Shown here piece after piece: positions 6,458-39,342 of a stretch of 47,265 nt of DNA; the stretch's first letter is position 1; each line of letters opens with the position of its first letter. The position numbers and the translations under genes are program-made. The DNA is taken from IMG/VR virus record IMGVR_UViG_3300011443_000007, positions 1-47,265 of that record; one strand, given 5' to 3'. Origin of the DNA: a virus (Duplodnaviria; Caudoviricetes). Below the pieces are notes generated by a model, which did no database searches, was not told where the DNA came from, and worked only from the letters and a program-made list of their open reading frames with translations.

Positions 6458-6503
6458 CCCCACATACCCCCCATCTTGGGGGTCACGCTCACTCCCCGAT
6501 GGT

Positions 6504-6530
6504 GGCCGGCTCAATGGGCCGGCCTTTTTT
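6504..6530 (+). terminator. Intrinsic terminator
   Basis: GGCCGGC/GCCGGCC stem followed by TTTTTT. Confidence 0.8.
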
Positions 6531-6549
6531 GTATGTAAAGGGCACTCGT

Positions 6550-7287
6550 ATGAAAAAGCTTCGCTACCTGCTGCTGTCCCTCCTGTTGGCCTTGGCTGTT
6601 GGATGTGCTGGACATAAGGTCCCGGTTACTGTGGTGGAAAACCTCGCCCCAGGCTACCTTGCCGCAATCAGGCCAGTCCAGTATCTTGGTGAGGGCGGCC
6701 AGTCCCTCCGCAATGGGTGTACCGCGAGCTCGATTAACCGCGACGAACACCTTTGGATCACCGCCTTTCACTGCGTGGCCGAAGGGGAGATGTTCATCCA
6801 AGCTAGCCCTGCCTTTCTTGTCGAAGGCGACAAGACCACCGACATCGCCGTGATCAGCGTCCCCAACTACACCGCGGGTGGGCAGATCCCGCTCGCCACG
6901 GTCGGCCCCAAGTGGCTTGAGCACATCATCATCGCCGGGCACCCGTTCGGGTATGAGGACATCTTCGTCACCCAAGGCTGGGTCGCCAACCCGAAGGCAT
7001 TCGTTGATGGGATCGAAGGGGTCGCCTTCATGGTGTTCAACGTCGCCGCAGCGCCTGGTAACAGCGGGAGCCCGGTCCTAAACTTGAAGGGGGAGATGGT
7101 ATCGATCCTCCAGATCGGCTGGAGCCGGGACTTCAGCCCGGTTAGTGCTGGAGCGCCCTTCGCAAACCTGGAATGGTACAAGCGATACTTCAGCGCACCG
7201 GCCTTTTCCACAAAAGGCCCGATGAGCTTGGAAGAAATTGAAAATTGGCAACCGGGTAATGATTGGGGCTGGAACGGGAACAAGTAA
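6550..7287 (+). CDS. Trypsin-like (PA clan) serine protease, lipoprotein
   Basis: Signal MKKLRYLLLSLLLALAVG-C with lipobox; triad motifs TAFHC, TDIAV, GNSGSP. Confidence 0.85.
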   Translation: MKKLRYLLLSLLLALAVGCAGHKVPVTVVENLAPGYLAAIRPVQYLGEGGQSLRNGCTASSINRDEHLWITAFHCVAEGEMFIQASPAFLVEGDKTTDIAVISVPNYTAGGQIPLATVGPKWLEHIIIAGHPFGYEDIFVTQGWVANPKAFVDGIEGVAFMVFNVAAAPGNSGSPVLNLKGEMVSILQIGWSRDFSPVSAGAPFANLEWYKRYFSAPAFSTKGPMSLEEIENWQPGNDWGWNGNK

Positions 7288-7548: not shown

Positions 7549-8670
7549 TTAGGCCAATTCCGCGAACCACTCCCTCCCACAGGCTTTCTCAACCTCATTC
7601 CACATCCGGGAGAACACCCCGCCTGGGGTGTGGAACACAACCCCGCAACAAGTCCCCCTCGCGCTCCCTGCCATCATCCTTGCCTGGGCGGGGTTGGAGA
7701 GCGTCGATCCACCTTTTGTAGGATCAGATGGGTCCGCGAACTTCTGGGGCTCACCTTGTAGGAGAGCCTTACCACGATACCGATACTCTGGGTGGGCCGT
7801 GGCGACCAGATCCGCGCAATACTTAAACCCCTCCGCATTGTGCCCATCACGCGGGCTATGAAAGTCATGCATCCTCTCCCAACCTGGGACGGGACGAAGC
7901 TCATTACCAAGCTTGTCATTATACGACCCGCCGCTGAACGCAACCCCCGTCGGTTCCGGGAAGGCGTTCGGGTTATCCGTCGCGTTGGAGTGAGCATACG
8001 GCTCATTGACAAGCTCGCCAAGGGTGTTGGATGACTGCCGAAGGGCTACCAGGACCTTGTTGTAATGCGCGACTTGTGTCGCTTGGCCCGGCATGACAAT
8101 CTGAGTATCAGCGAACACGGTGAAGTAGACATACAAGCCGTAGTAGGAACACAACGCGAAGAAGTTGGGGAGCTCATCGTAGTAACGATCCCCGTACTCC
8201 TGGGGATACCAGTGCGAGAAGCTCGACACCATGCCGATAACGCGCACACAATTCGCGCCCATCGCTGATCGCTCTGCCAGTAACGGGCGGATGTCCTCCC
8301 CATCGAGGAACCGCTTGTAGAGGAGAAAGTCCGTGACCCCCTTCATAAACCATCGCCCGTCCTCGGTGCGGAGATCATGGCCTTCAACCCAGACCCGCTT
8401 GAGCGGGGCCCTGAGCAACGTGATGGTCATGTCATCCCCGTTGAGCGCATCGACAGCAAGAGGCTGGTAGGCCGGCTTGACATCGGATGTGTTCACCCAC
8501 AGGGTGTAGGGCCGCTCTGGGAAATACGGCACGGGCCAGCCGGTGTTCCCGGCATCGTCCGTGGACACGTCGAAGAACGCACTGTCGCTGTCCTGGCCCT
8601 GCTCGGCGATTCGGATACGGATATCAGGCAGAGCCTCCCCGATCGGCCCGCGGACCTTAATTTGACTCAT
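7549..8670 (-). CDS. Clan GH-A (GH5-like) glycoside hydrolase with small N-terminal beta-sandwich
   Basis: GANCVRV, GLYVYFTVF, ELVNEP (acid/base Glu) and QGEP (candidate nucleophile) TIM-barrel pattern. Confidence 0.65.
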   Translation of the reverse strand: MSQIKVRGPIGEALPDIRIRIAEQGQDSDSAFFDVSTDDAGNTGWPVPYFPERPYTLWVNTSDVKPAYQPLAVDALNGDDMTITLLRAPLKRVWVEGHDLRTEDGRWFMKGVTDFLLYKRFLDGEDIRPLLAERSAMGANCVRVIGMVSSFSHWYPQEYGDRYYDELPNFFALCSYYGLYVYFTVFADTQIVMPGQATQVAHYNKVLVALRQSSNTLGELVNEPYAHSNATDNPNAFPEPTGVAFSGGSYNDKLGNELRPVPGWERMHDFHSPRDGHNAEGFKYCADLVATAHPEYRYRGKALLQGEPQKFADPSDPTKGGSTLSNPAQARMMAGSARGTCCGVVFHTPGGVFSRMWNEVEKACGREWFAELA

Positions 8671-9061
8671 TCTCTATCTCCTTCTGAAGGTTAGCCAAGG
8701 CCCGCCACGCGGCTTTAGCACTGTGCCGAACCCCGTCACTATCCAGTTTGCCCCTCTCCAGCAAGTGCCTCCCACACGCGTCAGCTTCGTCCTGGGACTT
8801 CGATCTATCCCAGTGAAGGGGTGTGCCTGGGTTATGCTGCTCGTTGCCCTTGTAGGAGCAGTAGGCCACCTCCAGGAGGGCATCGGGGAAGTAGTCCAGC
8901 ACTCCTGTCACCAATGGCCGTTCCTTCCGCCACTTCGCATCCTTGATCACCTTCCTTGGGCGTTGGGTCAAACCCGCGGCGACATCCCCCAACCGGTGTA
9001 GCTCACACACCCACCCAGCTCCCTCATCACATCCGCACGGTTGGGCGCTATTATTCTCCAA
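8657..9061 (-). CDS. dATP/dGTP diphosphohydrolase-like (DUF5664-type); start uncertain
   Basis: YFPDALLEVA..S.KGNEQH...LHWDR.KS...RHL...D.DG.RH...AWRALA pattern. Confidence 0.75.
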   Translation of the reverse strand: MENNSAQPCGCDEGAGWVCELHRLGDVAAGLTQRPRKVIKDAKWRKERPLVTGVLDYFPDALLEVAYCSYKGNEQHNPGTPLHWDRSKSQDEADACGRHLLERGKLDSDGVRHSAKAAWRALANLQKEIENESN

Positions 9062-9446
9062 TCTCAGCCTCGTATCGTTTAAGATATTCGATTGCTCCCT
9101 CGATTGTATCAAGCTCCGCCTCCCCAAGTAGCGCAAAGATGTTCCCCCTCGGTCCGACGGTGATGAAAGGGATGTTATTGGCGAGGGCGATCCCCGTCTC
9201 GACCGCCTTGCCTTCAGACATCTGGAGGTTAAACACTACCAGGAAGTCCGCGCTGATCACATCCTCGTAGTCCTCAAGGGCTTGATGGCGGATCTCGTCA
9301 TCGGGCTTGTCACAGCCAGTTGACGACCCACCCTCCCCATGCCTGAACCACCGAGAGGTGATCACATGCCCTGCGGCACCGATCTGCTTAGCAAAGGCCT
9401 CGACCTCATCCTTCCTAGCCCAAGGCCCCGCGACGTATACTCTCAT
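9051..9446 (-). CDS. Nucleoside 2-deoxyribosyltransferase / nucleotide N-hydrolase-like protein
   Basis: VYVAGP, D..DV..AD and G..VE.G.A motifs. Confidence 0.75.
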   Translation of the reverse strand: MRVYVAGPWARKDEVEAFAKQIGAAGHVITSRWFRHGEGGSSTGCDKPDDEIRHQALEDYEDVISADFLVVFNLQMSEGKAVETGIALANNIPFITVGPRGNIFALLGEAELDTIEGAIEYLKRYEAEIGE

Positions 9447-9586
9447 TGTGCTCCCTTCCAGAACCCCACCATGGAGAGGCAATAGCAGCCCCAAACCCAC
9501 ACCATCCACGGTTGATTGTTAAGCCAGAATTGAATGCCAATTATAGCATACAGCACGGCAAGGAGCAAGAAGAAAATCGGGTTCAT
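9443..9586 (-). CDS. 47-aa two-TM membrane protein
   Basis: MNPIFFLLLAVLYAIIGIQFW...; ATGA overlaps at both ends; not in the ORF track. Confidence 0.6.
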   Translation of the reverse strand: MNPIFFLLLAVLYAIIGIQFWLNNQPWMVWVWGCYCLSMVGFWKGAQ

Positions 9587-10644
9587 CGCATCGCTCCCCA
9601 GCTTGTGCCGACCTTCGCTTCAGTCCCGATGGTCAGGTATTCCCCCATGCCCCAGGACGGGTCAAGGGGCAGTTCCGGGATCGGCTCTTCCATCACAGCC
9701 CGGCTTACTGCCAGGCATGTGTCAAGGCCCGCAAGGTCACACTCGCCGAAAATCTCATCATGGATCAGGAGCCGGAGACTCTGGCCCACCCACGGGTAAT
9801 CGTACCAGATCCGCTTCGTCGCTCGCTTGATGATCGCTGCCGCGGTTGACTGTGGGAGGAAGCTGACAAGGCGCTTGGCGTCCTCCCCGAACGATGACAC
9901 CCACTCGGCCTTCCCTTCATACTCAATCCGGTCCCAGTTCAGGACGTTGTAGAATCGGTGCGTATACCCGAAGGGGTTCCGAGCGTGGCAAACTCCAAGG
10001 GTCCAAGGGTCAATGTGCCCGTCCTCAATCCCTTCGCTTGTTCGGCGCTTAGTCCCATCAACCCGCTCACAGAGCTGATGGTGCCATCGCTTGATTGCAG
10101 GGAAAATGTCAAAGTATAGACCTTGTAAGTCTGCGGCTTTCTTGACTGTGGGGAAGGTTTCGGGATATTCAAAGGCCATCTTTCTGGGAGTCATCATGTA
10201 GTTGCTCCCGTGAACGATCCGTTTCGCGGTGTCGTAGGTTGTCTTGTCCTGCTTCACTTCCTTAATCGCCGCTCGGATATCAGCATCGCTCCACTGAAAA
10301 TCAAAAGGCCTTCCAAGCATATGACCAGCGAGGAAGGCATGGACGCCGAGACCCGCAGCGCGAGTGTAGATAGGGCAACCAGCAAAATAACCCACCAGCT
10401 TCGCCTCAATGCCGCTGTAATCTCTTGCCCAGAAAGTCCTCCCAGCAGGGGCTTGGAACATGCCCTTAACCCATCTCTGAACCTCACTGTCATTGCCACG
10501 AGGGAGGTTCTGTAGGTTCGGATCAACGCTCGACAGGCGTAGGCTAGAAGGATTATGGGTGAACACAGTATGAATGCGCCCATCATTACCGACAGGAAAG
10601 CCGCCAGTAATAGGATAGCGTTGGTCAGTGCGGTCATTGTCCAC
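9583..10644 (-). CDS. polA: Family A DNA polymerase, palm/fingers part
   Basis: DGRIH, RLSS.DPNLQNLP, motif A DYSGIE, motif B KRIVHGSNY, PQSTAA, motif C IHDE. Confidence 0.92.
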   Translation of the reverse strand: MDNDRTDQRYPITGGFPVGNDGRIHTVFTHNPSSLRLSSVDPNLQNLPRGNDSEVQRWVKGMFQAPAGRTFWARDYSGIEAKLVGYFAGCPIYTRAAGLGVHAFLAGHMLGRPFDFQWSDADIRAAIKEVKQDKTTYDTAKRIVHGSNYMMTPRKMAFEYPETFPTVKKAADLQGLYFDIFPAIKRWHHQLCERVDGTKRRTSEGIEDGHIDPWTLGVCHARNPFGYTHRFYNVLNWDRIEYEGKAEWVSSFGEDAKRLVSFLPQSTAAAIIKRATKRIWYDYPWVGQSLRLLIHDEIFGECDLAGLDTCLAVSRAVMEEPIPELPLDPSWGMGEYLTIGTEAKVGTSWGAMR

Positions 10645-12145
10645 CCGGCCTCCCGATGTAAGTCCCAGCGAGTTTGTCTAGCTCCCGGTAAGTGAGGATC
10701 ATATTATACACCGGATCGTCCGGGTATTTCAAGATCAATGTCTTGATCGCCTTCTCGTCCGTGGTCAAGCGCATCTGGCCCGACTTCTTATCCCGTGTCG
10801 TCGGCGTCCGTCGCTTCAGGAAGTCGTTGTATCGGATGAGCTGCTCTCGGCTTGGCTTGAACGCAGCAAGGCGATAGTATTCGACAACGCTTTGTTCAAC
10901 CTCAACAGCGACTCCATCAGCGCAGGGGTTAATCTTCTTGACAAACCGTTTGAAGTGATCTTTCCTAGGCCGTGTTGCGCCGCAATTAGGACAGACCTTA
11001 ACCAATCTAGTTCCTGGTCGAGTAAGGAGCCCTTCGGTATCGGCTGGGGTGTTGACATAGACATGTTCTACCTTCCTTGTCGGGAGAGGCATCAGGCTTT
11101 CGAGATCCCGATGGGTCGCCTTTAGCCGGCTATCGAGCTCCACCGCGGAGCGGTGTCGGGTCTCGGCATCGATTGGCATCCCCTGTTCGGACATGAAGTT
11201 GAGTATGGGGTCGAGGTCCAGCACATCCCGCTGGTATACGTCCCACAACTCATGCTCCCGCAGCTTAGCTTCGATGGCAATCATCGACCTTAACTCGACA
11301 TCAGCGTCAGTGCAGTTATAAAAAGCAGGCCGAGCATGAGACAGATGCTTCCAAGGAGATTGATCAGGGCACGTAAAGGTTGCCACGAAACCGAGACCCT
11401 TTGGAAGATCGCTGTGTAGCACATGCCAAGCAACCATGCCATCGTGGATAAGGCCAGCAATCTTAACGCCATTGAACCTAACACGAGGGGTGTCGAATCC
11501 GCTGTTCCAGACAACCTTATCACCTTCACTTTCCAGGAGAAGCTTGATCGCGGGCAGGTAGGGGCCTTCCCAGGGTATGCTCATCCCGGTGTAGGGTTTG
11601 AACGAGAACCCGATCCGGTCGATTTTGTAGGTGACATCCACCGAAGGGTCTAGATCCCCTTCGTCCGCGCCCTTGTAGGGGGTTTCGATATCATACGCCA
11701 GGAACCGCGCGCCACTCGCACGATATCGCTTCGCCCACTCATAAGCCTGTCCAGGCAAGGGGTCCAGTAGATACTCAAGAGGGTGGAACGGAAGCCCGTC
11801 TCGGGCAATCTCCGTCGCTTTTTGGATGTCGTGGATGAACGCTGCTGCATATTTGCTCTGCCCCTGTCTGATGAATAACGGGTGAACTGTCGGAATGACA
11901 TGCACCCCCTGCCCATCGTGGACGTAACCTCGCCGGTCTAACACCGATCCGGGACCGAGCACCGACTCCATCGGCCCTTGACCCATCGGCACTACCACCC
12001 GTGTGGAAGGGGGGATTGGATCCCCCACTCCCACGACGGTGAATCCCCGCGGGTCGAAACCCGCCCACTCGATCAACCTCTGATAGGTAAACCGAGCCCG
12101 GCTGTCGGAAAGAGAGCCATCGTCAACCAGTGTAACCAACGACAT
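10634..12145 (-). CDS. polA: Family A DNA polymerase, N-terminal part: UDG-like domain + 3'-5' exonuclease + thumb with Zn-finger insert
   Basis: IPTVHP (UDG-like); Exo I DIET, Exo II WN..FD, Exo III YN..D; GMPID; YRELDKL.GTY. Confidence 0.88.
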   Translation of the reverse strand: MSLVTLVDDGSLSDSRARFTYQRLIEWAGFDPRGFTVVGVGDPIPPSTRVVVPMGQGPMESVLGPGSVLDRRGYVHDGQGVHVIPTVHPLFIRQGQSKYAAAFIHDIQKATEIARDGLPFHPLEYLLDPLPGQAYEWAKRYRASGARFLAYDIETPYKGADEGDLDPSVDVTYKIDRIGFSFKPYTGMSIPWEGPYLPAIKLLLESEGDKVVWNSGFDTPRVRFNGVKIAGLIHDGMVAWHVLHSDLPKGLGFVATFTCPDQSPWKHLSHARPAFYNCTDADVELRSMIAIEAKLREHELWDVYQRDVLDLDPILNFMSEQGMPIDAETRHRSAVELDSRLKATHRDLESLMPLPTRKVEHVYVNTPADTEGLLTRPGTRLVKVCPNCGATRPRKDHFKRFVKKINPCADGVAVEVEQSVVEYYRLAAFKPSREQLIRYNDFLKRRTPTTRDKKSGQMRLTTDEKAIKTLILKYPDDPVYNMILTYRELDKLAGTYIGRPGGQ

Positions 12146-20443: not shown

Positions 20444-21490
20444 TTAGCCTTTCAGCCGCTCCTGGTAGGGTTTCGCTGATGGGCGATCTAGTTTGAGGAA
20501 GGCTTCCTTGAAGTTGGTGATGTCCTGGACAGATTCCGAATCCGCCTTCCGTTTCAAGAACTTCGCCACGGTATCGATGTACTGGTGTTGTTCGATGGAC
20601 TCGATCGCCCGGGGGCAGTGAATCGCCCGGAGATGGGTGATGGCGTCCGCTGCCCCGTATTCGGGATTGCAGACCATCATCAGGCATACGGCTGTTGTGC
20701 CGGAGCGACCATGACCCCCTTGACAGTTCGTGACGACCTTGCCTTTCAGGACCGATGCCAGTGCCAGCCAGAATTCCGGCTTGACATTCGGCGCTTTCCG
20801 GTCATCCCAGTTGATCTTAATCACCTGCGGGCCAGTAAACGCCGCGGTGGTGTAGGAGTCGAGGGCATCCACCATCCATTCCGGGCCGGTCAAGATGCTC
20901 TTGGACCGGGTGGCGTACATGTCGGAGATCACATCCCCGCAGTCGATCACGAAGTCGAAGGATTCCTTGTGCTTCCTGACACCCTCGGCGTCGGCGATGA
21001 ACAGGTCGAAAGCGTCGTGGATCTGCACTTTCTTGTTCATCAACCGGGATGCAGCGAAGAGTGGCTTGGCCGCAGGGTCATGGTGACACCACTGGGATAG
21101 CGAACCCCCTGAGCTGATGAGCTTGGGAGTGGCGCTCCCGCTGGCGATGGACCCTCCCCATCCCGATGCCCTTCCAGGCGATCCCGGCAGCTCGGTGTGG
21201 GGTGTCAGGTTGAACCGGACCAGTTCGCCCGACTTGCGCTTGATGACCCAGTAGAGCAGGTCATCCAGCACGTAAGGGAATACCGGCCCGGTTGGGAGAT
21301 TGGGTTGAGTTGATGTCACTGGTAGCGTCTCCTTGAGTGATGCGGATAATGAGCCTTGATCGTACGCCGGATCCATCGGCGCGTGGGTATCGAGTGAGGT
21401 GATGGTGTGATCGACGTCACAGTTGTGACAGTGATACACCCCCGCACCGGGGATCCATTGGAGATAGTAAGAACACTCTGGGCACTTCAT
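20444..21490 (-). CDS. Dual-specificity/tyrosine phosphatase (CX5R) with N-terminal Zn ribbon
   Basis: WDD general-acid loop, CQGGHGRSGT P-loop, R...CPRAIES.EQ; N-terminal CPEC...CHNC. Confidence 0.85.
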   Translation of the reverse strand: MKCPECSYYLQWIPGAGVYHCHNCDVDHTITSLDTHAPMDPAYDQGSLSASLKETLPVTSTQPNLPTGPVFPYVLDDLLYWVIKRKSGELVRFNLTPHTELPGSPGRASGWGGSIASGSATPKLISSGGSLSQWCHHDPAAKPLFAASRLMNKKVQIHDAFDLFIADAEGVRKHKESFDFVIDCGDVISDMYATRSKSILTGPEWMVDALDSYTTAAFTGPQVIKINWDDRKAPNVKPEFWLALASVLKGKVVTNCQGGHGRSGTTAVCLMMVCNPEYGAADAITHLRAIHCPRAIESIEQHQYIDTVAKFLKRKADSESVQDITNFKEAFLKLDRPSAKPYQERLKG

Positions 21491-21494
21491 TGGG

Positions 21495-23387
21495 CTACTC
21501 CCCAAGCAATGCCTGTTCGGTCCAGATCATCTTCTTGACCCCGTTCTTGTGCCGCAGTTCGACCCCCCATCCGGTCGGAGTTGGGATGACGTAGAAGGTT
21601 CCGCCGATTGCCTTGGCAAGGGCCGCGGTGCTGATCTCAATCGTTTTCTCCATCCCCTTCAAGCCGCGGGGTTTGACCCTCAGCACCATCGCCGGGATTG
21701 GGGGAAGGTGCTCGACCTTTGCGGTATCCAGGCGGAGGGGGGTGAATCCCGTCACGGGCCACGATGCCCATTCGTTCTGCCGTTTGTCGATGTACGGGGC
21801 AGTAGTGGCCTGGTAGATGGAGTTGAAGGCCAGCATCGTTGGTACGCCGGTAAGGATGTGATGGAGCGACCCGGTTTGAATCGCCGTGAACATCTCCTCC
21901 CCTGTGAACTTGTTCATCCACCATCCCCCATTGTGGGCCTGGTCGACGGCGACATTCAGCGCCCGGATCAGTTTCTGCACAGGCTCAGGACCAGGTTCGC
22001 GGGCGAGCTCCGATACGGCGTTGAACAGGGGCATGAGAGATGCCCCACAACGGGCCCACTTCTCTCCGCCGATCGATCCACCGTTGAAGCCATAGCGGAG
22101 GATGTTGGTCAGGCGATTGCACCTGGCTCGGTGTCTCGATAACGTGAAGGGGTAGCAGCGATGATACACCTCCGACCGTTCCAGCTTCTGCTTGACGTGC
22201 GGATGGGGGAAGTATCCGACCACATGCCGGGCTTCACCGGAGAGGGCGACTGAACCGAACCGGAGCATCATCGAGGCAGCAAGGCCCAGCCACTTGCCGT
22301 TCTCGCCACCCATCGCGGATGCGTTGTAGAGTGCCGTGAGCATGAGGGCGATTTGTGATCCGGTTTTGCCAGAGGGGATGTCCATCTTCTCCCCCGCAAC
22401 TAGGCCCTTCAGCACGGCGAGGGGATCGGGGATCACATCCTCGGATTCTTTTTCGAGCACATCGCCTGGTGTCAGTTGACGCCCATCGAGCACAACTGGG
22501 ATCCCAAACGTCCGAGCGTGGACAGTGTAGTGATCCGTGAAGGAACCCCCGGGATGGTTCACGACGATGCCGAGAGTCTCGGAATGAGCTTTGATCACCC
22601 GCTCCCACTCAAGAAGGGAACCCTTCGCTTCCAGGACCTTCTCCACCGTCACCGTGGATGGGATGTAGTTCGCGGTGATCGCACCCATCCTTGGACCCGA
22701 CCGGAGCTGGGTGAAGTAGATCGTATCCCACTCCCCGGCGACGATCTCCATATACGGATCATCGTTCGGTGGGATCTCCGCTGCGGTGAGGAGCTTGGAT
22801 GGGAGATGCTCTCGCATCAACGGAATCGACACCGTATCGGACCCGTTCGTGGCCCCGTCGTTCCCCTTGCCGGCGGTGATGGATGTCGGGGTCCAGACAA
22901 CGTTCCATTTCGGCTTGGGGACGGGCTCCATCACCATCACCTCACCGTTCGGATCCGCCGCGAGGGTCTCGGTGAGCATCGCCTTCAGCTCATCGGAGGT
23001 GGTGATCACCTTACTGTCCACGAATCCGTGTCTGGGCGTGAGCGGGCACGGGCGGGCGAAGTAATCGCGGGGGAATCCAACCTTGACCATCCCATCCAGC
23101 GCAGTCAGGAACCCGTACACGCCTGGGACGCTGACCCCGTGGCTTGAGCCAATCCCGTGCTTTTTCAGGGCGATGACCCCTTTCCCCTTCTGCGTACGGG
23201 GGGTGAGGGACCATCCCGGGACGACCGCTGGGGTGGCCTCGTCCTGGATCTGCTGCCAGGTTTTGGTGATCTTCCCCGTCGCCGCATCGATCAGGTAATG
23301 CCCGTAATCCTTCTCGCACGCGTGGCATTTTTTGTGATTCCCACACCACGAACCGCCGCAGTTGAAGCACTTCGCTTGTGTGCCCAT
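21495..23387 (-). CDS. PPDK/PEP-synthase-like phosphotransferase: ATP-grasp-like + phospho-His swivel + unassigned C-terminal domain
   Basis: FARPCP..RHGFVDS and YFTQLR (ATP-grasp-like); GGSFTDHYTVHARTFGIP resembles the GGxTSHAAIVARxxGIP swivel motif. Confidence 0.75.
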   Translation of the reverse strand: MGTQAKCFNCGGSWCGNHKKCHACEKDYGHYLIDAATGKITKTWQQIQDEATPAVVPGWSLTPRTQKGKGVIALKKHGIGSSHGVSVPGVYGFLTALDGMVKVGFPRDYFARPCPLTPRHGFVDSKVITTSDELKAMLTETLAADPNGEVMVMEPVPKPKWNVVWTPTSITAGKGNDGATNGSDTVSIPLMREHLPSKLLTAAEIPPNDDPYMEIVAGEWDTIYFTQLRSGPRMGAITANYIPSTVTVEKVLEAKGSLLEWERVIKAHSETLGIVVNHPGGSFTDHYTVHARTFGIPVVLDGRQLTPGDVLEKESEDVIPDPLAVLKGLVAGEKMDIPSGKTGSQIALMLTALYNASAMGGENGKWLGLAASMMLRFGSVALSGEARHVVGYFPHPHVKQKLERSEVYHRCYPFTLSRHRARCNRLTNILRYGFNGGSIGGEKWARCGASLMPLFNAVSELAREPGPEPVQKLIRALNVAVDQAHNGGWWMNKFTGEEMFTAIQTGSLHHILTGVPTMLAFNSIYQATTAPYIDKRQNEWASWPVTGFTPLRLDTAKVEHLPPIPAMVLRVKPRGLKGMEKTIEISTAALAKAIGGTFYVIPTPTGWGVELRHKNGVKKMIWTEQALLGE

Positions 23388-23999: not shown

Positions 24000-24263
24000 C
24001 TAACTCCCGTGATACGGGTCAGTGAGGGTGTGGGGTTTCAGGGCGATCCATATCTCATCCACCCCGCCGAGGACGAAGAATCGGGACCGATCCATGTCCT
24101 CGATCTTCAAGTGCATGACGACGTTTCCATCCTTATCCAGGGTGACCGACCCCCGGCCCAGGTGCGCGACTTGAGCGAGCAGATATGGCACTTCCGGCCA
24201 GAGGGTAGATGTCGAGAACTTCATCTTCGGCTCGGGCATCGCAGCGGTTGTGTCGATGATCAT
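24000..24263 (-). CDS. Hypothetical protein
   Basis: Coupled to the RapZ-like gene. Confidence 0.45.
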   Translation of the reverse strand: MIIDTTAAMPEPKMKFSTSTLWPEVPYLLAQVAHLGRGSVTLDKDGNVVMHLKIEDMDRSRFFVLGGVDEIWIALKPHTLTDPYHGS

Positions 24264-24646
24264 CACGTCCCCGCTACGTGGAGGAAGGAGTGATGGGACT
24301 TGGCGACGGCGTATCCGTTTGCATCGAGGTCCGCGAGAGCCAGCTCGACCATCGCGGTGGAGATCCACTTACCGTGATAGTCGTGGAAGGCGATGGTTGT
24401 CCAGTTCTGGCGCTCGGCTGCGATCATCCGGATGGCGTGTAGGATCGGCTCGACGCGGGGATCCTTGATGAGGAAATCCTGGACTTCCTTATCCCGCCCA
24501 TCCTTCCCGCGAAGGTGATGCTGCCCGATGGGGTCGCGTAGGCGGGAACAGTCAACCCGCCAGTGGAAGATGATCTGTGGCGTCGGCCGGGAGGTCGGGA
24601 TTGAGTACAACCCGACCTTCGCAAGCCCGATGGTTGTGATTGGCAT
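24263..24646 (-). CDS. RapZ C-terminal-domain-like protein, degenerate copy
   Basis: DCSRLRDP...LR..DG.D.EV..F, but DYHGKWIS replaces CxGGxHRS. Confidence 0.6.
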   Translation of the reverse strand: MPITTIGLAKVGLYSIPTSRPTPQIIFHWRVDCSRLRDPIGQHHLRGKDGRDKEVQDFLIKDPRVEPILHAIRMIAAERQNWTTIAFHDYHGKWISTAMVELALADLDANGYAVAKSHHSFLHVAGT

Positions 24647-25922: not shown

Positions 25923-26120
25923 TCAATCCAACCCAAGATGGTTATGCGCCCTGATTAATGGTATCGCACCGCCCGAGTTGTTCACCTTTCGGTATCTCTT
26001 GTAACGTGCCCGTTCTGCTGCCTTGCGGCACTTGACACAGTATCGCGTGCCGGCGAATCGGGATTGGAAGAAGCGCCGACAGTCGTTGACCAATCTTGGA
26101 CACACGCGATACGATGCCAT
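25923..26120 (-). CDS. Small Cys-rich basic protein
   Basis: C-x6-C...YCVKC; TGATG coupling. Confidence 0.5.
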   Translation of the reverse strand: MASYRVCPRLVNDCRRFFQSRFAGTRYCVKCRKAAERARYKRYRKVNNSGGAIPLIRAHNHLGLD

Positions 26121-26632
26121 CACTTCGCCCCAGGACCGTTCGTCGTGACTGATGCCCATCCCCTTTGCCGCAGCTCCTCGGCCAGGATGTGCTTCATCGC
26201 ACGGCTGCGATGGATGCCATGCGCGCACATCGTGGCGATGATCACAGGCTTTGCGTACGGGGTGGTGTTTCCCAACCGACGGGTCGGGATCTGGTGAATC
26301 CCGTCCTCGATGATCTGGATGAACGAGTCGATGAACTTCCTCGACCGCAGCTTCACCCAGGCGATCACCTCGCCATCATCGCCAGTGAGGGTGGCAAGCT
26401 TCGGTTCCAGGAATGGGTTGGGGATCGGCCTGCAATCGAGGTAGTAATCCGCGCGGGGCATGGGGTGGTTATTCCCAACCCTCTTCCATCCATCGTTGAT
26501 GAGCACGATCTGCGCGACGTGCTTGGGCTTGATCATCGCTTGATCCAATTGTTTCCTCCAGGCTTCGTATCCGATGTTGGCGTAAAGTGCGAGCAGGTTG
26601 TCCATCATCACCAGAGATGTTTTAGATACCAC
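26120..26632 (-). CDS. RapZ C-terminal-domain-like protein, intact motif
   Basis: LDCRPIPNP...L..LTG.D..V and IATMCAHGIHRS...LAE.L match the RapZ/YvcJ C-terminal pattern. Confidence 0.75.
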   Translation of the reverse strand: MVSKTSLVMMDNLLALYANIGYEAWRKQLDQAMIKPKHVAQIVLINDGWKRVGNNHPMPRADYYLDCRPIPNPFLEPKLATLTGDDGEVIAWVKLRSRKFIDSFIQIIEDGIHQIPTRRLGNTTPYAKPVIIATMCAHGIHRSRAMKHILAEELRQRGWASVTTNGPGAK

Positions 26633-38209: not shown

Positions 38210-38944
38210 ATGGGTATTTTCAGAAATCGGCCTACTGCAACTGCGGACGCTAACTACTCCGACGCAGCTCCGGGTCGTCATGGTGTGTATGGGGATGCGT
38301 ATGTCGTTCCCGTCGCAGACGGCTGGAAGAACGCCGCGGATGAGGGATCGTATTACGTTGGCACGAACGCAGCGCTGGGGACGCCCGTCGCGGGCCACGC
38401 AGCGCCGGCGCTTGCCGACAACGACGATACGCCTACCAAAGCGCTGTTGCATATCTTCAATACTGGCCAGCGCAACATCGCAATGGACTACGTGAAGCTC
38501 CAGTTTGAGACGGTGAATGCTTCATCGACCTCAACCGGGTTCACGATGTTCGTCGACAACATGGGTCAGACTGGTCGGACTAGTGCAGGAACGTCTGTTG
38601 TGCCGGTCAACACCAACTCGGGTTGTTCCGTCGCAACGGGCGCTGCTTGCTACTTCGGTGCAGTGGCCACCTCGGTGACGGCGAACTTGGCGAAGAAAAT
38701 CGGCCAGTGGACGGCTCGTCCGGTTATCGCAGTGACGGAGGATCAAATCCTGTTCCGCTTCGGACAGGGCGCGGCTCTCAATGCTCACGGCGTCATCACC
38801 GGCACGACCGTTGCGTCGATCCTCGTCAGTGTCGCTCCGGTGGTTATCGCTCCAGGAGGTAACTTCTACCTCTGCGAGAACTATCCCTCGGGCGCGATCA
38901 CTGCCGCGACGTACGAATTCGAATTCGGATTCGTCGAGCGGTAA
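38210..38944 (+). CDS. Capsid decoration / minor structural protein
   Basis: AAGGAGG RBS right after the major capsid gene; Ala/Thr/Gly beta-rich. Confidence 0.5.
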   Translation: MGIFRNRPTATADANYSDAAPGRHGVYGDAYVVPVADGWKNAADEGSYYVGTNAALGTPVAGHAAPALADNDDTPTKALLHIFNTGQRNIAMDYVKLQFETVNASSTSTGFTMFVDNMGQTGRTSAGTSVVPVNTNSGCSVATGAACYFGAVATSVTANLAKKIGQWTARPVIAVTEDQILFRFGQGAALNAHGVITGTTVASILVSVAPVVIAPGGNFYLCENYPSGAITAATYEFEFGFVER

Positions 38945-39342
38945 TGTATAAGGAGATCCGGAAGGGGGTTGACGTAACCCCCTTCCTTTCTCTGATCGAT
39001 CTGATCGACATCCGGTGGAATCCCCCCGGATGGGGATCCATCACCTCCCTAGACCTTCGGGGGCCTTTTGGCCCCCTCATCGAAGGGGAATGGGTTCAGG
39101 CAATGCTAGTGGGGATGAAACCCCTTTCCCTGATCCCCCTTCATGTGGACGCACCACAGAGAAGGAAAACCCGGCGGATCCACACGGTTCTTACCACTAA
39201 CCCGGGTTGTTGGTCATTTCATAACGGAGATTGGATCCAGCTTCTAGCAGGCTACCAATACGAGATGGACGAAACCCAGCCACACGGGTCCGTCAACATG
39301 GGGGACACAACCCGATACCATCTGATTGTTGATCTCCTCTAG
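38944..39342 (+). CDS. 2OG-Fe(II) dioxygenase, Asp/Asn/Pro beta-hydroxylase family
   Basis: IPLHVD (HxD), RIH..L.TN, PHGSVN.G...R.HLIVD. Confidence 0.8.
   Translation: MYKEIRKGVDVTPFLSLIDLIDIRWNPPGWGSITSLDLRGPFGPLIEGEWVQAMLVGMKPLSLIPLHVDAPQRRKTRRIHTVLTTNPGCWSFHNGDWIQLLAGYQYEMDETQPHGSVNMGDTTRYHLIVDLL
38960..38992 (+). terminator. Terminator-like hairpin inside the 5' end of the dioxygenase gene
   Basis: 11-bp stem GGAAGGGGGTT/AACCCCCTTCC followed by TTTCTC. Confidence 0.55.

Follow-up and report, generated by a model that had tools for sequence, protein, structure and literature searches.

The 47,265-nucleotide (nt) window analysed here (IMG/VR record IMGVR_UViG_3300011443_000007, Caudoviricetes, taken over its whole length) is a phage genome that carries genes for a portal, a major head protein, DNA polymerase A, and a Dam methylase, with an identical 123-nt repeat at both ends. 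Within a minus-strand gene run, ahead of the replication genes, lies a fused dikinase-type gene of 630 amino acids (21495..23387, minus strand; ATG start, with an AAGGAG ribosome site upstream), and 4 nt after its stop codon begins a gene for a cysteine phosphatase of 348 amino acids (20444..21490, minus strand). The dikinase, for which 291 homologues were found, was modelled at full length with a predicted local distance difference test score (pLDDT) of 89.6 and a predicted template modelling score (pTM) of 0.87. Its main parts, all on the minus strand, are a compact ATP-grasp domain (residues 60–235; 22683..23210), a putative swivel domain of the phosphohistidine type (residues 238–315; 22443..22676), and an all-helical domain (residues 318–545; 21753..22436) that is homologous to the stand-alone proteins of PHROG 20946.

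The model of residues 316–548 consists of helices throughout (pLDDT 90.2, pTM 0.90), and the helical domain is thus not a TIM barrel. This bears out an earlier note on the same DNA, which had described a helical region after the swivel domain, unlike the pyruvate-binding barrel and marked by three motifs, all of which were located in the 630-residue open reading frame: GEARH (residues 384–388; nt 22224–22238, minus strand), GGSIGGEKWARC (residues 436–447; nt 22047–22082, minus strand), and DQAHNGGWWMNK (residues 482–493; nt 21909–21944, minus strand). Column conservation across homologues indicates that these motifs are more than chance. In an alignment of 120 homologues (the best of the 291 found), no variation is seen at E385, R387, G440, G441, W444, H485, and G488, and conservation reaches at least 90% at H388, R404, N478, N486, N492, and K493; in a set of 45 more distant homologues, with 17–34% identity, the invariant residues are E385, R387, R404, G440, G441, and W444, with H388, H485, N486, G488, and K493 at 90% or more. 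Columns conserved at this level number 25 of 193 in the helical core versus 28 of 176 in the ATP-grasp domain. The E/R/H and D/H/N/K residues that had been proposed as catalytic are strongly conserved, with the exception of D482, which is not the family residue (Asn in 101 of the 120 homologues, Asp in the window protein). Structure searches, including Foldseek, gave no clear fold match to a solved structure among the matches listed for the helical model, and no rifampin-binding domain appears among them, an absence from the list that is not in itself an exclusion. Of the two known domains to which a confident match would, according to the earlier note, have spoken against its reading, the C-terminal barrel of phosphoenolpyruvate (PEP) utilizers is ruled out and the rifampin-binding domain is not among the matches listed; the helical domain is conserved and without a clear structural relative.

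The domains that precede it resemble the engine of known dikinases. The ATP-grasp domain carries K67 in a QKxxG motif, R112, HGFVDS, GNDGAT, E214, and Q227-x-R229, and these motif columns are invariant or nearly so among homologues. A Foldseek search with the full dikinase model placed RPH (5fbs, E 5e-4) at the top, followed by VanA (E 9e-4), PPDK (1kbl, E 9.5e-4), and further ATP-grasp ligases, and the Atlas structure rows for the domain are PPDK_N / ATP-grasp. Neither the ATP-grasp domain of the window protein nor the family members searched gave a sequence match to Pfam PPDK_N. The swivel domain contains His286, within the segment HPGGSFTDHY, in all 120 homologues, and Pfam PEP-utilizers (PF00391) was matched in 4 of 45 family members; judged from sequence, its assignment is weak by score, although both the motif and its position agree with it.

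An exhaustive search with the helical domain returned 399 cluster representatives, of which 150 were listed. Among 211 fused-family proteins, the ATP-grasp, swivel, and helical domains occur together in 202, and the remaining nine, whose sequences begin within the swivel or helical domain or a little ahead of it, appear to be cut at the 5' end. The 54 fused loci that were compared (50 viral and 4 from GTDB) span GC contents of 0.31–0.71, and the family is phage-centred, the GTDB scan having yielded those four loci only. Of the 54 loci, 53 have a phosphatase gene, and the lone exception stops at a contig edge; in 52, the gene lies on the same strand within 711 nt of the dikinase, downstream in 49 and upstream in three near-identical loci. 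The profile used for this count was itself seeded with 17 of the phosphatase sequences, and five loci are near-duplicates. The phosphatase of the window (Pfam PTP-SAK, E 4e-5) has the P-loop CQGGHGRSG (nt 20699–20725, minus strand) together with a W-D-D loop and an ExxxQ loop, and the 230 PDB sequences matched by profile include protein tyrosine phosphatases (PTPs), the archaeal TkPTP and SsoPTP, and DUSP23. All 50 sequences compared share the Cys, the Arg, the WPD-loop Asp, and the Gln, and the CX5R loop, general-acid Asp loop, and Gln loop make the partner a class I Cys phosphatase. This near-obligate partner, which the earlier note had missed, is the strongest clue to function. The phosphatase alignment also contains extra conserved Cys and His residues (an N-terminal CxH, a P-loop His, and a CxxAVE Cys), which could form a metal site or a redox switch. 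In one locus (L049:4561-16866), the strand opposite the dikinase holds three paralogues of the phosphatase, a RapZ-C gene, and a second, partial match to the helical domain.

The same parts recur as separate genes in cultured phages. The report on Vibrio phage J26 describes a 'PPDK' (ORF98) two genes from a PTP, with PEP docked into ORF98 (PMC12038007). The fused-family profile had no match to the tail of the J26 PPDK; in a set of 18 proteins, its matches were the hypothetical protein that follows the PTP in J26 (WYC17969.1, E 7e-13), RcZahn gp10 (E 1e-12) and DLP5 gp142 (E 1e-10), and these three stand-alone helical proteins are PHROG 20946. Stand-alone and fused helical profiles align with an HHalign value of 98.3% (E 1.4e-14) over 116 columns, with the three motifs collinear; R/E/R/H, GGxxW, HN, and NK are invariant in 32 stand-alone proteins, and the motif order of PHROG 20946 (RExRH, GGxxW, HNNG..FNK) is common to the fused domain. 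The window protein itself had no PHROG match at E≤0.01 and is a distant homologue of PHROG 20946, not a member. Stand-alone homologues, for which the earlier note had suggested a search, thus exist both in cultured phages and in metagenomic loci. The gene was found in 41 GenBank phage records, and 38 of these recur among the PPDK matches (60 of 63 listed). Across 46 split loci from IMG/VR, the fused-family profile finds the stand-alone protein in 45, a PPDK-like gene is present in 41 (a few of them incomplete or fragmented; the five remaining loci are cut upstream by a contig end), and a phosphatase is present in 45, with two phosphatases in 42.

The split PPDKs extend 173–262 residues beyond the His (32 full-length proteins), their tail has no conserved column, and Pfam PEP-utilizers_C had no match in any of the three cultured representatives (J26, RcZahn, and DLP5); a tail that is short, unconserved, and barrel-less indicates that no catalytic acceptor domain is built into these proteins. 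Of the split phosphatases, the downstream one has GGHGRTG in 38 of 38 sequences and the CxxAVE-type Cys in 37 of 38 (48 of 50 in the fused family), whereas the signature of the fused family occurs in none of 36 upstream paralogues. Phosphatases of the split cassette are labelled 'thymidylate synthase' in PHROGs (phrog_17568) and in the DLP5 record (examples are L055:15057-15605 and L057:7894-8146), and the DLP3 paper names gp141 a tyrosine phosphatase (PMC7326821). Further genes of the split cassette (L059–L104) encode a protein of ~80 residues (43 of 46 loci), a CsrA-labelled protein of ~100 residues (42 of 46), and a phrog_25950-type protein (42 of 46) that is labelled pyruvate decarboxylase in J26 and has no Pfam match.

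From these results, we consider it fairly likely that the window gene and its neighbour encode a dikinase-type phosphotransferase, whose helical domain holds the acceptor, and a phosphatase that removes the phosphate. The helical domain as acceptor site is the simplest reading, and probably the right one, because two engines with no detectable sequence similarity beyond short motifs both travel with this domain and with the same phosphatase subtype, and because no acceptor site of its own is conserved in the split engine. The new acceptor specificity put forward in the earlier note is upheld insofar as a non-barrel domain is tied to an ATP-grasp and swivel-His engine in both fused and split form, the acceptor role itself being a prediction. 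By the chemistry of PEP synthase, RPH, and glucan water dikinase (GWD), the reaction would be ATP + H2O + X-OH → AMP + Pi + X-O-P. The β-phosphate would be carried on His286, which the swivel arm would bring to a pocket made up of E385/R387/H388, W444, H485/N486, and N492/K493. In RPH, the acceptor domain has a phosphate site described as R666/E667/K670 (PMC4844700); the Glu, Arg, and Lys of the helical domain resemble this site by analogy and may take the role of E667, R666, and K670. The partner phosphatase would take the phosphate off the product again. Within this scheme, we lean towards a small, host-independent acceptor (a nucleotide, a sugar-phosphate, or a nucleic-acid end) over a protein side chain, since deep conservation across phages of differing GC content and hosts favours a small invariant acceptor over a host protein surface; the report on VadK indicates that a protein-directed role is also possible (PMC13400623).

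Several observations weigh against the proposed phosphotransferase. The swivel domain scores below the cut-off of PF00391 (E 0.017; 15.1 bits against 23.1). The fused ATP-grasp domain shows no detectable sequence kinship with that of split PPDK (HHalign 0.7%), and the swivel of the fused family aligns with the split phage PPDK swivel at an HHalign value of 22%; by sequence comparison, the engine of the window protein is very far from PPDK. Ligases that convert ATP to ADP (VanA, Ddl, CPS) rank as high as RPH and PPDK in Foldseek, so that AMP-forming chemistry is suggested by the swivel His alone and would apply to the window dikinase by analogy with known swivel-His enzymes. The family residue H354 (105 of 120 homologues) is Tyr in the window protein. 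The stand-alone profile matches 79 of 211 fused proteins (E<1e-3) and not the window protein, which means that the link between fused and split forms runs through family profiles. Most of the split loci belong to a single lineage of syntenic phages, with a polymerase in common in 41 of 46, and so count as little more than one event, and the barrel-less PPDK of Bacillus phage G has neither partner within 4 kb.

Among the alternatives, we regard as unlikely a phospho-relay in which phosphate would pass from His286 to His485 or His388, then to the phosphatase-like Cys, and on to a target, as in the enzyme I–IIA–IIB chain of the phosphotransferase system. Two conserved His residues in an all-helical domain would suit such a relay, as would a stand-alone helical protein whose gene has a phosphatase gene on either side (42 of 46 split loci), and helical IIA and Cys-loop IIB proteins do exist in that system. 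However, the WPD-loop Asp and the Gln loop, with which PTPs carry out hydrolysis, are retained in the partner, and no IIA or histidine phosphotransfer (HPt) chain was found in the top 50 VIA rows or among the Foldseek matches listed. A biosynthetic step, in which a nucleotide or base would be activated for DNA or nucleotide modification and the phosphatase would trim an intermediate, is likewise improbable. Phosphorylation serves as activation in dikinases of the PigC or Cj1418 type, and among the genes of the window are one for a dATP/dGTP diphosphohydrolase N-domain and one resembling nucleoside deoxyribosyltransferase. DNA of DLP3, which has the split cassette, is reported to resist 15 restriction enzymes, but the same report discusses a glycosyltransferase elsewhere in that genome as a possible DNA modifier (PMC7326821). 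Moreover, no further enzyme family recurs within 8 kb across the fused loci other than RapZ-C, in 7 of 54, and genes of replication or of particular lineages.

We regard as very unlikely a helical domain that works as an enzyme or ligand-binding module in its own right, such as a HEPN-like bundle with RNA or nucleotides as its substrate, and that is regulated by the dikinase without being its acceptor site. The catalytic RxxxxH motif of HEPN/nucleotidyltransferase C-terminal bundles is absent, and the conserved motifs are instead ExRH and HNxG..NK. An ordinary auxiliary metabolic PPDK or PEP synthase that interconverts pyruvate and PEP is the published reading of the split form in J26, and GenBank labels agree with it. 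We find it scarcely credible, given that the window protein has no TIM barrel in its model, that PEP-utilizers_C is unmatched in the cultured split proteins, and that the reported overlap of the J26 protein with the PPDK structure 1GGO covers residues 1–527 of 691 (PMC12038007).

Compared with PPDK and PEP synthase (1KBL, 1DIK), the window protein has the same order of ATP-grasp domain, swivel His, and third domain, LxQxR and SHxAVxA-type motifs, and the structural similarity noted above; it differs in its helical third domain, which replaces the pyruvate/PEP-binding barrel, in its compact ATP-grasp domain (~175 residues), and in its near-obligate phosphatase partner. GWD and the glucan phosphatases SEX4 and LSF2 are paired on one substrate, a His-swivel dikinase adding the phosphate that a Cys phosphatase removes, although GWD is a plant enzyme that acts on starch, with another domain order and carbohydrate-binding modules, and no sequence link between GWD and the window system was found. 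RPH (5FBS), too, is a dikinase of the swivel-His kind, and its acceptor domain, which is not a barrel, has an R/E/K phosphate site, but its His domain comes last (ATP-grasp, rifampin-binding, His swivel), whereas the His swivel is central in the window protein; its rifampin-binding domain is not among the matches listed for the helical domain, and its report, as far as consulted, describes no phosphatase partner (PMC4844700). VadK (Rv1127c) is a PPDK relative without the pyruvate domain that autophosphorylates on His from ATP, but it is a cellular regulatory kinase for which neither a helical partner nor a phosphatase is described in the portion of its report consulted (PMC13400623). The phage cassette of PHROG 18609 'PPDK', 20946, and 17568 (J26, SIO-2, RcZahn, DLP3/DLP5, and RHph phages) has the same three parts, with a homologous helical domain and the same GGHGR phosphatase subtype, but consists of separate genes with a conventional PPDK-like engine, two phosphatases, and extra small genes; it is uncharacterised and labelled metabolic. 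The window system would work like RPH or GWD, yet it is set apart from PPDK by the missing barrel and from RPH by its domain order. The literature covered, which did not extend to Burroughs and Aravind 2023, yielded no description of such a three-part system.

Swivel-His dikinases acquire new chemistry through swaps of the acceptor domain, and the present phage-centred family probably offers a conserved domain of this kind. The absence of a pyruvate barrel from the phage 'PPDK' proteins, which travel with the helical domain and a phosphatase, suggests that a published auxiliary metabolic gene has been misannotated. More speculatively, and with considerable doubt, hundreds of phage lineages might share an ATP-powered, reversible phosphorylation switch, composed of a swivel-His dikinase, an undescribed acceptor fold, and a dedicated Cys phosphatase, that acts on a host nucleotide signal or nucleic-acid end and controls infection or counters defence; in that case, the 'PPDK' that cultured phages of Vibrio, Rhodobacter, and Stenotrophomonas carry would be its split form and not part of carbon metabolism. 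Because the split form occurs in cultured phages, the system is directly testable, for example with RcZahn on Rhodobacter capsulatus.

The ends of the dikinase are more variable. Residues 1–25 (23313..23387, minus strand) form a Cys-rich, zinc-ribbon-like segment that is variable and modelled with low confidence (pLDDT 43–53), and at least one CxxC occurs within the first 60 residues in 66 of the 120 homologues. The earlier note had treated 21495–22430 (residues 320–630) as one domain; this stands for residues ~318–545, but residues ~551–625 (21513..21737, minus strand) make up a separate small β-sheet domain, modelled as strands only. This domain is lineage-specific: none of its 118 columns is at least 90% conserved, its profile matches 112 of 211 family proteins, and it has no Pfam match. 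Some fused dikinases carry an N-terminal left-handed β-helix of hexapeptide repeats (L005:7146-8000, L007:7356-8000, P0115).

Upstream of the dikinase, the window encodes two stand-alone RapZ C-terminal-domain proteins, one that keeps CAHGIHRS (26120..26632, minus strand; Pfam PapZ_C, E 8e-15) and one in which the motif Cys is lost (24263..24646, minus strand; PapZ_C, E 5e-8). Apart from the phosphatase, this family is the sole recurring non-replication neighbour across unrelated loci, and the gene at 26120..26632 is possibly an optional partner of the dikinase. In three loci (L001, L021, and L031), a RapZ-C family gene adjoins the dikinase start. DNA polymerase A is split over overlapping reading frames of 503 and 353 residues (9583–12145, minus strand) that match consecutive parts of phrog_17, either naturally or through an assembly slip. 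Beside it (8657–9509, minus strand) lie the dATP/dGTP diphosphohydrolase N-domain (E 8e-9) and the nucleoside 2-deoxyribosyltransferase-like gene (E 4e-4). A trypsin-like peptidase gene (6499–7287, plus strand; E 5e-11) ends the plus-strand block, and an Asp/Asn β-hydroxylase-like gene (38944–39342, plus strand; E 3e-7) is located in the virion block after the major head gene.
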